Below the pieces are notes generated by a model. That model saw only the letters and a list, made by a program, of their open reading frames with translations. It did no database searches and was not told the origin of the DNA. From Deltaproteobacteria bacterium (GTDB lineage Bacteria > Myxococcota_A > UBA9160 > SZUA-336): DNA of 64,000 bases. The stretch spans positions 3,424 through 67,423 of the forward strand of contig JAJDAK010000011.1 in assembly GCA_029261895.1 (NCBI GenBank), given 5' to 3'. Below are positions 2,756 to 64,000 of the stretch, in pieces (positions within the stretch are counted from its first letter, which is position 1; the number at the start of each line of letters is the position of its first letter). A program made the translations under genes and the position numbers.

Positions 2756-5700
2756 ATGCCAGCGCGGTACCTCATGGGCTTGGACCTCGGCGGCAGCGGA
2801 GGGCGCTGCCTATTACTGGATCCGGATTCCGGAGAGCAGTTCGTGAGCACGCGCGCCTGGCGCCACGCTCCGGTTCAAGACCAGGGCAATCTCGCTTTCA
2901 ACCTTAACTTTAATGAAATCGATCAAGCCCTTACCAACACCATTGCTGAGGCGCTGGAGCTGGCGGGAGCACAGGCTTCGGACATCGCTGGAATCGCGTG
3001 TACCGGAATGCGCCACGGCATGGTCCTGACCGATCGCGACCTGCAACCCATCTTCGCGGTCCCGACCCGCGATACACGAGCTGCGCTCAGCATCGGCGAA
3101 CTGGTGAACAGCGTCGGACCGCGCTGTTTGGAAGAATGCGGTTCCTGGCCGAACCCGGTTCATCTGGCTACCCGACTGCGCTGGCTCGCAACCACCCAAG
3201 ACGAGCTTTGGCGAGAGGCGAGCTGCGTGCTCGGCATCGGCGAATACTTTGCAGCGCGGCTCAGCGGCGAAGCCGCTGCGGAGCCCTCCCAAGCCAGTGC
3301 CAGCGTGTTGTTGAATCTCGCGAGCCGCGATTGGGCCTGGAACTTAATAGATGACTTGAACTTTCCACGTGAACTCTTTCCAGCAGTTCGTGTTGCAGGA
3401 TCTCCGCTTGGACATGTCACAGACGAGGCCGCCTCGGCGCTTGGATTGACGCCCGGCACGCCGGTGATCATCGGCGCTGGCGATACGCATGCTGCGTTGC
3501 TGGCGGCTGGCGTTGTGGAGCCCGGGCAGATAGGTATCTGTGCCGGTAGCACGGCTCCGCTCATGGGCGTTCTCGAGACGCCGCGCATCGATCCCGACGG
3601 TCGCCTTTGGGTCGAACCCCATATCATTCCTGGACGCTCGGTCGTTGAAAGCAACGCCGGTGGCGTCGGTGAAGCGCTCGAATGGTTCGCCCGCTTGCTC
3701 TTCCGCGATGAGATCTACCCGATGGATCACCTCTTTGCGAACGCCGCCGAAGCCAGGCTTGGATCCCGCGGGGTGCTTTCGACTTTAGGGCCGCAGGTGA
3801 TGGACGGAAAGTCGCTCGCTTTCCCCCTCGGCCGTATTCACCTCACACCGTTTTCACTGATCGACACCGCAGCCGATCGCGCGGATCTCGCGCGTGGTGT
3901 GGTGGAAGGGATCGCCTATGGGTTGCGCGCTAACGCCGAACAAATCATCGCGCATATGGGGACGGTCCCCGAGGAAATCGTAATTACCGGTGGACTGGCG
4001 AGGAATACATTCTTCACTCAACTCTTGAGTGATGTATTGAATCGCCCTGTTGCGGTAGCCAAAGGCGAGCAGACCACGGCGCTGGGAGCTGCACTCTCTG
4101 CCGGGGTCGGTGTAGGCGTATTCGAGAATCTCAGCCAGGCCAGCGCAGTCACGCGTGCTGTGGAACGCCGACATGAACCCCATCCCGATCACGCCGCCGC
4201 CTACGAGTCGATCTACCAAGGTTGGTCGCGTGTTCGTAATGCGGCGATGCCCGGGGATGCCGAGGCGGCCGGCTTGACGATCCAGACTTCGCTGCGTGAA
4301 GCACCAGCGGTCCAATCCTCAGCCGCGCTGCGTTTTCGTCCGAAGATTCTGGTGACCGCTGAATTGGATGCGTTGAGCCTCGAGCGGCTGCAGAATTTGG
4401 GTGACGTCGAGTACGCGAGTTTTCGCGACGCCATGCGGTTGCTCACGGGACCCGACTTGGTCGAAGCCCTCAAAGGCGTACACATCTTCATCACGGAAGT
4501 GGATGTTGTTGACGCTGCGGTGCTCGAACAAGCGACAGACCTCCGGGCGATCGCCATCTGTCGCAGCGACGCGGTAAACGTGGACCTCGAAGCCTGTACC
4601 GCCGTTGGCATCCCCGCGTTGCACGCACCCGGTCGCAATGCCGACGCGGTGGCGGATCTCACACTCACCTACATGCTCACACTGGCGCGCAAATGGGTCG
4701 ATGCCACGCAGTTTCTGCAGCGTCCCGGCGGCGAGGCCGGCGACATGGCGCGGATGGGTCAGGCGTTTCAGGAACTCCTGGGTCACGAGCTTTGGCAGAA
4801 AACCGTCGGCTTGGTTGGCCTGGGTGCCGTGGGTCGACAGGTCGCGAAACGTCTGCAAGCATTCGGCGCAAAGCTCTTGGTCTTCGATCCATATCTCCCG
4901 TCTCAGGCCGCGCGTGTGCTTGGCGCAGAACCCGTTGATTTAGACGAGCTACTCACGCGCAGTGATTTCGTCAGCCTGCACGCTCCCGTTACTCCCACGA
5001 CTGAAGGGATGATCGGTGGGCCCGAGTTCGGACGCATGAAACAGGGTGCGATGTTGATCAACTCGGCTCGCGCTGCGTTGGTCGACTACGACGCGTTGAT
5101 CACGAGTTTAAAGAGCGGTCACTTGGGTGGCGCCGCGGTGGATGTCTTTCCGATCGAACCGCCCGCGGCCGACGACCCGCTGCTCTCCATACCCAATTTG
5201 ATCGCGACGCCACATATCGGTGGGAACACCGTGGAGGTCGGCGCCCACCAGGGCGAGATTATTACGGACGATCTCACACGCATGCTCCGCGGCGAAGCGC
5301 CGCAGCACGCGTTGAATCCCGCTGCACTCGAGCGGTTCCGTTGGGACGGAAGTCGGGAAACCCTGGACACCGACACCTGGGATGACCTCAAGCGCGCCGC
5401 AGGTCCGACGGTCTCGGGTCCACAGAGGGCACCCGCCGTTGCAGCGGTTGCGGCAAAGCCCGAGACGGATCCAGCCTCGCGCCGCGACGACGCACAGTAC
5501 GTGAACGCGCGAGCCAAGATGCAGCCGCTTCTCGGAGCATTCGTGGCGGATTGTCTGGACGATGATGCGCTCGGCACGTTCGCTAACGGCAAATCCGTCA
5601 TCCTGCATTTCATCTTGAACGATCTCGACTTGGACTTTCAGCTGGGCTTTGCGGGTGACCGTGTCATCGGTGAGCTAGGCGCACCGAATCCAGATCCTGA

Positions 5701-62573: not shown

Positions 62574-62605
62574 TTGACTCTGTAGTAAGGTACAGGGTCT
62601 ACAGT
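62574..62605 (+). promoter_or_regulatory. Candidate MerR-type promoter: TTGACT, 20-bp spacer, TACAGT, with an imperfect dyad across the spacer
   Basis: Read directly from the sequence. The over-long 20-bp spacer is typical of MerR-family promoters. It lies about 30 nt upstream of the merR-like start. Confidence 0.35.
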
Positions 62606-62633
62606 ATCAGCATTGGAGATCGCGGTGGAATCC

Positions 62634-63038
62634 ATGACAATCGGACAAGTGGCCAAGCAGACCGGTGTCGGTATCGAGACCGTTCGCTTCTACGAGCGCG
62701 AGCGGATGATTCCCAAGCCGCCTCGTCGGTCTTCCGGGTACCGCGCCTATCCGCTGGAAACCATTGCTCGCGTGGCATTTATCCGCAACGCGAAGGAGCT
62801 GGGCTTCTCGCTGCGAGAAATTCGGGAACTACTCTCCCTCCACGTGGACTCGCGCGCAAACTGCAAAGCGGTAAAGCAAAGGGGCGAAGAGAAAATCGAG
62901 GATATCAACAGCAAGCTCCGACGCCTTCAACGCATGAAACGCGAACTCACCAAACTCTTGCATGCATGCAATGAGCGGCAGCCAACTGGCCCCTGCCCAC
63001 TCCTCGATGCGCTCGACCACAAAGACCTCGGCCTTTAG
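62634..63038 (+). CDS. merR: MerR-family metalloregulator with the mercury-type three-cysteine site
   Basis: ORF track 62613..63038 (TTG). The ATG at 62634 gives MTIGQVAKQTGVGIETVRFYERERMIPKP. Cys77, Cys112 and Cys121 (RANC ... LLHAC-x8-CPLLD) are spaced exactly as Cys82/117/126 in Tn501 MerR. Confidence 0.8.
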   Translation: MTIGQVAKQTGVGIETVRFYERERMIPKPPRRSSGYRAYPLETIARVAFIRNAKELGFSLREIRELLSLHVDSRANCKAVKQRGEEKIEDINSKLRRLQRMKRELTKLLHACNERQPTGPCPLLDALDHKDLGL

Positions 63039-63046
63039 ACGGTGCG

Positions 63047-63253
63047 ATGATGGAAATAACATCAACCATCACCTGCCCGCATTGTCAGCATACGAAGGTC
63101 GAGGAAATGCCGACGAACAGTTGCCTCTTCTTTTACGAGTGTGCCGGTTGCCAGCGTCGGTTAAAGCCGAAGTCGGGAGACTGTTGCGTATTTTGCTCGT
63201 ACGGAACTATTCGCTGTCCACCAAAACAACAGGAAGAAGGGTCCGACACATGA
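63047..63253 (+). CDS. Small Cys-rich GDCCVxC-motif protein (68 aa, 9 Cys)
   Basis: CPHC...CLFFYECAGC...SGDCCVFCSYG...CP. Starts 8 nt after the merR stop. Confidence 0.65.
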   Translation: MMEITSTITCPHCQHTKVEEMPTNSCLFFYECAGCQRRLKPKSGDCCVFCSYGTIRCPPKQQEEGSDT

Positions 63254-63633
63254 CGAGTTCCATCACAGCACTGGATTGGGTCGCTCGAAGGCGCAGCTGG
63301 TTTCTGTTTTGGGGTGCACCCTCGATTGCAATCGCGGTTTCTGTCGTAGTGACATCAGATCAAATGACGCTAGGAATCATCTGGAGTGCAGCATTACTTC
63401 TTATGAGCGGTGCGTGCTTGATGAACGCTCGTCGCTGCGGCCGCCTGCACTGCTACCTCACCGGCCCATTTTTCCTCGTGATGGCTCTACTGTCGATGGC
63501 GGAGGGATTGGGGATCATCTCCCTCGGCCCCCACGCATGGCCACGGCTTGGTGCGATCCTAGTCGCCGGTGGCGCTTTCCTTCACTTCGTCCCCGAAAAG
63601 CTCTGGGGCAAATATCGGCAGCGACAGGACTGA
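63250..63633 (+). CDS. 4-TM membrane protein with an intramembrane/loop Cys cluster (C-x7-C-x4-HC)
   Basis: ATG at about 63250 forms an ATGA overlap with the stop of the GDCCVxC gene (reading frame of ORF track 62962..63633). Sequence: MTSSITALDW...SGACLMNARRCGRLHCYLTGP.... Confidence 0.5.
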   Translation: MTSSITALDWVARRRSWFLFWGAPSIAIAVSVVVTSDQMTLGIIWSAALLLMSGACLMNARRCGRLHCYLTGPFFLVMALLSMAEGLGIISLGPHAWPRLGAILVAGGAFLHFVPEKLWGKYRQRQD

Positions 63634-63806: not shown

Positions 63807-64000
63807 ATGTCCCACCAAGACATCGTTGAAGATTTACCCTTTAAGCTTGGACAACTCGACCACGTGGTGCTCCGGACAATCAACGTTCAGACGATGCTGG
63901 ATTTCTATGCTGCGCTCGGTTGCAACGTCGTGCGCAGCAGTGAGAAACTGGGTATGCATCAGCTAAGGGCCGGGTCCTCAATGATTGACATCGTCGACGC
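63807..64000 (+). CDS. VOC/glyoxalase-family protein. N-terminal part only, since it continues past the window end.
   Basis: MSHQDIVEDLPFKLGQLDHVVLRTINVQTMLDFYAALGCNVV... Confidence 0.5.
   Translation, partial: MSHQDIVEDLPFKLGQLDHVVLRTINVQTMLDFYAALGCNVVRSSEKLGMHQLRAGSSMIDIVD

Follow-up and report, generated by a model that had tools for sequence, protein, structure and literature searches.

The window analysed here is a stretch of 64,000 nucleotides from a contig of a Deltaproteobacteria bacterium (assembly GCA_029261895.1, contig JAJDAK010000011.1), and this report concerns three genes which lie head-to-tail on the plus strand at its right end (Table 1). The first encodes a MerR-like regulator, the second a small cysteine-rich protein of 68 amino acids (aa) of the GDCCVxC family, and the third a four-helix inner-membrane protein, here called X. 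On balance, and with moderate confidence, it is proposed from sequence evidence that this locus may be an Hg(II)-inducible mer-type operon without a reductase, in which X and the GDCCVxC protein would form a thiol relay.

Only 8 nucleotides separate the end of merR at 63038 from the start of the GDCCVxC gene, and the TGA stop codon of the latter (63251..63253) overlaps the ATG of the X gene (63250..63252) in the form ATGA. This order, with the small gene directly behind merR, was already described in an earlier note on this DNA that was made from its sequence alone, and it was found again here. Both the GDCCVxC protein and X have many relatives and both genes are therefore considered real. The guanine-plus-cytosine content of the three genes is that of the surrounding DNA of the window, and a single autoregulated transcript would run from merR to X.

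Table 1. Features of the merR-GDCCVxC-X locus, given as positions in the window
Feature	Position	Strand	Details and basis
MerR-type promoter/operator candidate	62574..62605	+	TTGACT, 20-nucleotide spacer with dyad, TACAGT; sequence reading
merR-like regulator	62625..63038	+	137 aa from GTG 62625; Pfam and NCBIfam matches
GDCCVxC-family small protein	63047..63253	+	68 aa, 9 Cys; NF041374 match
Four-helix inner-membrane protein X	63250..63633	+	127 aa; ATGA overlap, AlphaFold2 helices

The GDCCVxC protein

The product of the second gene (MMEITSTITCPHCQHTKVEEMPTNSCLFFYECAGCQRRLKPKSGDCCVFCSYGTIRCPPKQQEEGSDT) contains nine cysteines at positions 10, 13, 26, 32, 35, 46, 47, 50 and 57, with the GDCCVFC motif being encoded at 63176..63196. 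The number of cysteines and the motif had been read correctly in the earlier note, while the second spacing given there is replaced by C26-x5-C32-x2-C35. The protein was found to match the NCBIfam model NF041374, named 'GDCCVxC domain-containing (seleno)protein', with 101.4 bits against a cut-off of 40 (E 2.4e-29). This match is full-length, with residues 6-63 of the protein lying on profile positions 1-58 of 58. A match of this strength means that the open reading frame (ORF) is not a chance one, and it bears out the earlier note, which had named a small (seleno)protein family with this signature.

In an alignment of 30 family sequences, C10, C26, C32, C35, C46, C47, C50 and C57 were invariant and C13 was conserved in at least 90%, and the protein of the window has all nine of these residues. 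Many family members end in a C-terminal CC tail resembling that of MerA, which is absent from the protein of the window. The latter has cysteine throughout and no selenocysteine, and no in-frame TGA for selenocysteine was found at the motif in the related loci, which had been picked by an all-cysteine pattern.

An AlphaFold2 model of the protein was obtained with a predicted local distance difference test (pLDDT) score of 83.5. Fold and sequence searches returned only weak matches to zinc ribbons or zinc fingers and no informative relative, these weak matches suggesting that the N-terminal half of the protein may be zinc-ribbon-like. C26, C46, C47, C50 and C57 fall outside such a four-cysteine ribbon and could possibly make up a second site. 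No signal peptide was detected, and a Pfam scan of the 68-aa protein gave no family, metallothionein included, at E<=0.01.

It should also be noted that the public gene calls of the matching contig skip the GDCCVxC ORF (L161 2521-2733; labels of this form denote related loci), leaving a gap between merR and X. An identical protein is absent from a collection of 15 billion proteins, in which the best match is 76% identical. Annotation probably misses a share of the small ORFs that belong to this family.

The membrane protein X

AlphaFold2 modelling of X from a 34-sequence alignment gave four helices (14-34, 38-63, 66-87 and 96-119) with a mean pLDDT of 88.3. All four are hydrophobic, in agreement with the four-helix membrane protein that had been described behind the ATGA overlap. 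Across the X family, the mean number of lysine and arginine residues is 1.9 in the N-terminal tail, 0.1 in loop 1, 3.0 in loop 2 (the turn between transmembrane helices 2 and 3, TM2/TM3), 0.2 in loop 3 and 3.1 in the C-terminal tail. By the positive-inside rule these counts place both ends and the TM2/TM3 turn in the cytoplasm, and X is thus predicted to be an inner-membrane protein of N-in/C-in topology.

Nearly all of the invariant polar residues of X are located at the TM2/TM3 turn, namely C56, N59, R62, C63, R65, H67, C68 and T71-G72-P73, and the family motif can be written as A-C-x2-N-A-x-R-C-G-R-x-H-C-x2-T-G-P. The cysteine motif was previously given as C-x7-C-x4-HC and has to be corrected to C56-x6-C63-x3-H67-C68. 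Every invariant position of the family is present in the X of the window (P24, W45, C56, N59, A60, R62, C63, R65, H67, C68, T71, G72, P73, W97 and E116). The conserved cysteines are spread over TM2, loop 2 and the beginning of TM3, with TM1 containing a mean of 0.06 cysteines per sequence.

At 50% identity and E<=1e-3, a search of 1.84 billion representatives gave 1016 clusters for the X family. Pfam and NCBIfam scans of the X of the window and 33 relatives matched no family. All that a fold search brought back were up-down four-helix bundles of a generic kind (the CheA P1 domain, cytochrome b562 and designed proteins among them) at identities of 4-14%, and these were uninformative. Relationships to MerT, MerF, MerC and MerH were examined using hhalign. 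A probability of 90.9% for MerT proved to be an artefact, because one sequence of the MerT set (a stop-free stretch of L152) also encoded X; with this contaminating sequence removed the value fell to 2.9%, the reversed control giving 0.3%. MerH was likewise rejected (0.2%), and no homology was detected to MerF (0.5%) or MerC (0.3%).

Coupling and natural fusions of the two proteins

Adjacent genes for a GDCCVxC protein and X were found in 10 other loci, three of which (L124, L127 and L130) share with the window the bare trio of MerR, GDCCVxC and X. The two proteins are also found joined in one chain in 106 cluster representatives, with the GDCCVxC domain N-terminal in all of them. Near-full-length chains account for 71 of these; their median length is 198 aa, and the lowest identities are about 44%. 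The first fusion encountered was a 197-aa protein, and a search with it revealed a whole subfamily. The ATGA-coupled pair of the window is the split form of this fusion. The coupling of the small protein to the membrane protein that the earlier note described is thus found well beyond this contig, and a functional coupling of the two is supported by these comparisons of gene order and domain arrangement.

Two further kinds of fusion were detected. In six Bacteroidota loci (L001, L003, L009, L020, L052 and L056, at about 4580-5200 in each), the reading frame of a MerC-like four-helix protein runs on through GDCCVxC with no intervening stop. An Acidobacteria locus has canonical merR, merT and merP genes and, in the place of merA, a gene (L071 4680-5210) that overlaps merP by ATGA and encodes a signal-less HMA domain, a linker and GDCCVxC. 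All three fusions place the GDCCVxC domain in the cytoplasm, on the cytoplasmic end of a membrane component or on an NmerA-like domain.

A difference between the fused and the stand-alone forms of X was observed at C63. The equivalent residue is serine in 26 of the 55 near-full-length fusions that were readable at this position (16 more being unscored), and in stand-alone X it is cysteine in 216 sequences and serine in 12. The attached GDCCVxC domain may compensate for this ligand in the fusions.

Regulator and promoter

The regulator gene probably starts at GTG 62625, which has GGAG 6 nucleotides upstream, with TTG 62613 and ATG 62634 as in-frame alternatives; the public gene call for the same DNA likewise gives 137 aa. 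Its product matched the Pfam families MerR, MerR_1 and MerR-DNA-bind. The best NCBIfam model was that of the Hg(II) MerR (TIGR02051), with 129.3 bits, below its cut-off of 150.85. The CueR model followed with 112.4 bits, and those of ZntR and CadR were close behind too. The regulator was aligned with the annotated Hg(II)-responsive MerR of plasmid pIP40a and with MerR proteins from MerA-containing loci, and in this alignment Cys77, Cys112 and Cys121 (the latter two forming C-x8-C) were invariant. The earlier description of the regulator as an Hg-type MerR appears only partly backed, in that it agrees with the three aligned metal-binding cysteines and not with the score.

Upstream of merR, a candidate promoter was detected which consists of TTGACT (62574-62579) and TACAGT (62600-62605). 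A standard promoter scan, which covers spacers of 16-18 nucleotides, misses this site because its spacer is 20 nucleotides long. An imperfect dyad lies in the spacer, ACTCTGTA (62577-62584) and TACAGGGT (62591-62598), with its arms 6 nucleotides apart, and a wider inverted repeat was also detected upstream of merR. The promoter aligns without gaps with those of L095, L100, L132, L139 and L153, loci whose merR has the same direction as the genes behind it, namely merT, X, merP and merA. Other related loci carry the classical operator TCCGTAC-N4-GTACGGA or the variant CCTGTAG-N3-CTACAGG, the former type being present in L124 and L130. Promoters activated by MerR characteristically have such a long spacer (19-20 nucleotides) with a dyad inside it. 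We infer from the sequence that the site of the window would function as a MerR-activated promoter.

Genomic neighbourhoods of X

A survey of genomic neighbourhoods, as suggested in the earlier note, showed both protein families to be linked to MerR-family regulators and to mer genes, this linkage being partial in each case. For X, 80 metagenome loci anchored on this protein were examined for neighbours within 3 kb, out of more than 553 X loci found. Genes of mer type were found near X in 42 of these 80 loci, with MerR in 23, MerT in 22, MerA in 21, MerP in 17, GDCCVxC in 16 and MerF in 8.

A recurrent gene order is merR-merT-X-merP-merA. When L132 was read as a whole, it was found to encode MerR, a MerT-like protein, X and a protein with an HMA domain and MerA, the latter having the GGTCVNVGCVPSK active site and a C-terminal CC. 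Homologues of X are also present in annotated mer operons of plasmids, where they are labelled 'hypothetical protein'. On the IncC plasmid pIP40a, merR-merT-merP-merC-merA is followed by an EAL gene, a MerR-family gene, X, a membrane protein and a Tn3 transposase, and near-identical matches are listed from Shewanella, Citrobacter, Providencia, E. coli and marine plasmids. Plasmids of the Roseobacter group carry merT, a MerP-like gene, merF, merA, X and an oxidoreductase.

X is a recurrent, non-obligate component of mer operons which usually accompanies MerT. The suggestion that X could be an alternative to MerT is not borne out by the operons in which the two occur together, and since these are common X is usually an extra component.

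The membrane protein that follows the X homologue on pIP40a is a 'hypothetical' protein of 188 aa (L162 5363-5929) whose gene overlaps that of X by 4 nucleotides. It contains an LLCCTPLLP motif reminiscent of MerT, MerF and MerE, and it had one match among the related loci.

Genomic neighbourhoods of GDCCVxC and the absence of MerA

The GDCCVxC family was found in at least 599 species-representative genomes and in 352 plasmids, and the best 80 of the species-genome loci were used for the study of its context. The gene immediately upstream on the same strand encodes MerT or MerTP in 24 of these, MerP in 10, MerC in 7 and MerF in 1. A MerR is near GDCCVxC in 14 of the 80 and an ArsR-type regulator in 18. 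Annotated orders include ArsR-MerTP-GDCCVxC; MerR / MerT-like, MerF, GDCCVxC; MerR / MerT, GDCCVxC; and MerR / (merT) merP, GDCCVxC. X follows GDCCVxC in just 3 of the 80, and 14-16 of the 80 X loci have GDCCVxC.

A MerA match of more than 600 nucleotides was present in none of the 80 GDCCVxC loci, 63 of which extend for 3 kb or more to each side. Among the loci anchored on X, GDCCVxC is present in 14 and MerA in 20, with no locus containing the two together (Fisher p = 0.016, short contigs weakening this test). What GDCCVxC excludes is MerA and not MerP. The earlier suggestion that the small protein could replace MerP is not supported, given its lack of a signal peptide, its fusion to cytoplasmic ends of membrane proteins and its position behind MerP itself in 10 of the 80 loci. 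Of MerP and the MerA/NmerA end of the relay, it is the latter that GDCCVxC resembles more.

On the minus strand of L132 and L137 (2979-3107), just upstream of merR in these MerA-containing loci, a stretch of about 43 aa shows a weak and partial similarity to GDCCVxC (E 4e-7). This stretch may be a gene remnant.

The neighbourhoods also bear on the identity of the metal. The same architecture could serve another soft metal or metalloid (Cd, Zn, Pb, Cu, Au or As), with the MerR protein being a non-mercury sensor. The sub-threshold mercury score of the regulator and the nearby scores of CueR, ZntR and CadR would fit such a role, as would the lack of MerA in the window and the occurrence of GDCCVxC next to ArsR, ars, CDF, P-type ATPase and RND efflux genes. 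It is nevertheless considered unlikely, as the three aligned cysteines with C-x8-C fit an Hg-type MerR and the operator and promoter align with those of MerA-containing operons. In addition, X adjoins MerA in about a quarter of its loci and the immediate membrane partners of GDCCVxC are transporters of the mercury type.

Flavoprotein and thioredoxin-like partners

A pyridine-nucleotide disulfide oxidoreductase of about 448 aa with the active site GGTCALRGCDPKK was seen to recur in mer contexts, where it is annotated merely as an NAD(P)/FAD-dependent oxidoreductase. Its C-terminus (...YPTGASDIGYML) lacks a cysteine pair. It is encoded at L023 2992-4326, L049 3630-4964, L078 3622-4959, L179 2090-3433, L163 5388-6734 and L169 10305-11657, sometimes in the place of MerA and sometimes adjoining MerA or MerB. 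In L023, L049, L078 and L179 it precedes GDCCVxC or a GDCCVxC-X fusion in the position of MerA. Thioredoxin-like partners were also observed. In protein P0268 a thioredoxin-like domain (LTFKGCPNAQ...) is fused N-terminally to X, and L172 3456-5381 has the order MerR / Thioredoxin_3, MerF, GDCCVxC, a 42-aa ORF, DUF1097 and X.

These partners raise the question of whether the function of GDCCVxC and X is one of redox chemistry. The two could form a thiol/disulfide relay (with selenol in some members) by which the cysteines of a transporter or reductase would be kept reduced, or they could deliver Hg(II) to a MerA-like flavoprotein without a C-terminal cysteine pair of its own. In the latter form, that of a two-component reductase, the flavoprotein partner for the pair of the window would be either absent or encoded at another site. 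Selenocysteine is usually a sign of a redox-active site, and the name of NF041374 implies that some members are selenoproteins. The flavoprotein in the position of MerA, the MerA-like CC tail of many GDCCVxC proteins and the thioredoxin-like genes or fusions that accompany X are in keeping with this idea. The window itself has no such flavoprotein and its GDCCVxC protein has no CC tail, most GDCCVxC loci are without a nearby oxidoreductase, and the related loci, picked by the all-cysteine pattern as mentioned, yielded no selenocysteine variant. Redox chemistry is accordingly regarded as an improbable explanation of the locus of the window.

Comparison with known systems

The closest known arrangement is that of the transposons Tn5563 and Tn5563a, found on pRA2 and on IncP-6 KPC plasmids, which likewise have a MerR-controlled operon that lacks merA and ends in a GDCCVxC gene. 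The order in the record of Tn5563a is merR / (merT) merP, GDCCVxC, tnpA, with the GDCCVxC gene at L174 4992-5204 (pKPC2_045096). The merP-GDCCVxC segment was found in 213 plasmids, with identities of at least 99% in 204, and the prototype pRA2 (NC_005909.1 17209-17704) is one of the 213. The plasmids belong to Pseudomonas (86), Klebsiella (43), Aeromonas (27) and others, and KPC plasmids are included. Tn5563 differs from the locus of the window in having MerT and MerP and no X, the window having X and neither MerT nor MerP. Published descriptions of Tn5563 name merR, merT and merP only and call the locus partial or defective, and comparable modules without merA have also been termed 'defective' (PMC4785139).

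It could be thought from such descriptions that the locus of the window is the decayed remnant of a mer operon which has lost its transporter and reductase and has no current function, given that neither MerA nor MerT is encoded in the window. This is the least likely of the alternatives, and a very improbable one, because the genes are intact and conserved and the trio recurs. The three ORFs are tightly coupled and keep all of the invariant residues, the promoter is conserved, the guanine-plus-cytosine content does not depart from the surroundings and the trio is found in unrelated metagenomes. Furthermore, the absence of MerA is the rule among GDCCVxC operons.

Among the small inner-membrane proteins of mer operons, MerT, MerF, MerC and MerH pass Hg(II) on to acceptors in the cytoplasm through cysteines that are essential. 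X resembles them in size and predicted location, and MerC likewise has four helices and is found fused to GDCCVxC. It differs in showing no detectable homology to any of them, in having no CC pair in its first helix and in bearing its cysteine/histidine cluster at the cytoplasmic TM2/TM3 turn.

In MerA, the NmerA domain and the C-terminal cysteine pair are the cytoplasmic sites which receive Hg(II) from the transporter. GDCCVxC is like NmerA/MerA in taking the operon position of MerA, in being fused behind HMA in L071 and in often ending in CC. Unlike MerA, it has no flavin or NADPH domain and therefore cannot itself reduce Hg(II), and its putative zinc-ribbon-like fold would differ from the ferredoxin-like HMA fold of NmerA. 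A further comparison is offered by the metallothioneins SmtA/BmtA, which are small and cytoplasmic with about nine cysteines around a zinc-finger-like core. The GDCCVxC protein is similarly small and cytoplasmic with nine cysteines, and by Pfam the two have no sequence relation. The pairing of mercury import by MerT/MerP with a cytoplasmic metallothionein has been used in engineered strains (PMC6215804), a design that the proposed unit would share.

No paper mentioning the family was found in a literature search for 'GDCCVxC', and literature on MerH, merTP, Tn5041/orfY and operons without merA yielded nothing that describes the GDCCVxC or X families. The control by MerR and the mercury thiol relay are known; both effector families are uncharacterised. 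The coupling of GDCCVxC with X has no earlier report in the literature searched.

Proposed mechanism

In the mechanism that is proposed, the entry of Hg(II) or of a comparably thiophilic metal into the cell would lead MerR to activate the operon. X, predicted to be an inner-membrane protein with cytoplasmic termini, would offer its Cys/Cys/His-Cys cluster at the cytoplasmic face. The GDCCVxC protein, a putative cytoplasmic four-cysteine zinc ribbon with five further cysteines, would dock on X, and metal would move between the two by thiol ligand exchange, as from the cysteines of MerT/MerC to NmerA. By this exchange GDCCVxC would take the role of cytoplasmic acceptor that belongs to MerA/NmerA, and the Hg(II) would then either stay bound to it or be handed on to thiols of the cell or to a reductase whose gene lies elsewhere. 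The weakest point of this scheme is the movement of metal across the membrane by X itself. The general assignment to a mer-type unit for handling soft metals is made with fairly high confidence, and the specific roles of GDCCVxC and X with moderate confidence. The interpretation given in the earlier note is partly supported.

Several observations weigh against a mercury relay in this form. No MerA, MerT, MerP, MerC or MerF was found in the 64-kb window (for MerA, tblastn with three MerA sequences gave no match), which sets the locus apart from a canonical mer operon and leaves X as the sole membrane candidate for the unit. The score of the regulator against TIGR02051 has the same bearing. None of the cysteines conserved in the X family alignment lies on the predicted outer side, and X has neither the vicinal CC pair of MerT/MerF/MerC nor an evident transport path. 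About half of the X loci and 31 of the 80 GDCCVxC loci have no mer-type neighbour, and several of the fused GDCCVxC-X genes stand alone with no regulator. The flanks of these 31 loci are heterogeneous, with an RND pump in 4 and singletons in the remainder, and show no second theme. With so many X, GDCCVxC and fused genes outside mer contexts, the core function may exceed mercury. The neighbour counts are themselves approximate, as the profiles for MerT, MerP, MerA and others were built ad hoc from few annotated proteins. Lastly, in the one experiment with a bearing on the matter, Tn5563a caused the minimal inhibitory concentration of Hg(II) to rise in 2 strains and to fall by a factor of 2 or more in 6 (PMC4447125), so that GDCCVxC is unlikely to be a strong bulk sink for Hg(II).

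One further gene was seen in the vicinity. A glyoxalase/VOC-family gene begins 173 nucleotides after the X gene on the plus strand (63807..64000) and runs off the end of the window; on the matching public contig it encodes 159 aa (L161 3290-3769) with nothing else downstream. It is absent from the listed recurrent neighbour clusters of the related loci, among which no search aimed at glyoxalase was made, and it is not counted as a member of the unit.

Significance

The list of mer genes (merR, D, T, P, C, F, E, G, H, A and B) is treated as essentially complete in what is a very well studied system. Two further families are now seen to recur in mer-type operons, one of which is named only for its motif and the other of which has no family model. 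GDCCVxC also marks a large class of mercury-importing operons without a reductase, including the module on more than 200 sequenced plasmids.

A wider proposal, which is put forward tentatively and is rather doubtful, is that GDCCVxC, whether alone, paired with X or fused, represents an overlooked second branch of mercury handling that is independent of MerA. The nine-cysteine domain would take Hg(II) from a membrane component and either hold it or feed it to the tail-less MerA-like flavoprotein, with which it would form a two-component mercuric reductase. If this were true, the merRTP module of Tn5563 that has been called 'defective', present on about 200 sequenced plasmids with KPC plasmids among them, would be a complete functional unit, and X would be a new family of membrane proteins of mercury operons.

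Should the pair not relay Hg(II), it would still be a conserved and widespread cysteine-rich membrane complex worth characterising. If it does, the persistence of mer operons without a reductase would be explained, the mercury pathway would gain a new membrane component, and the pair would provide a compact natural module for import plus binding that may be of use in biosensing or bioaccumulation.

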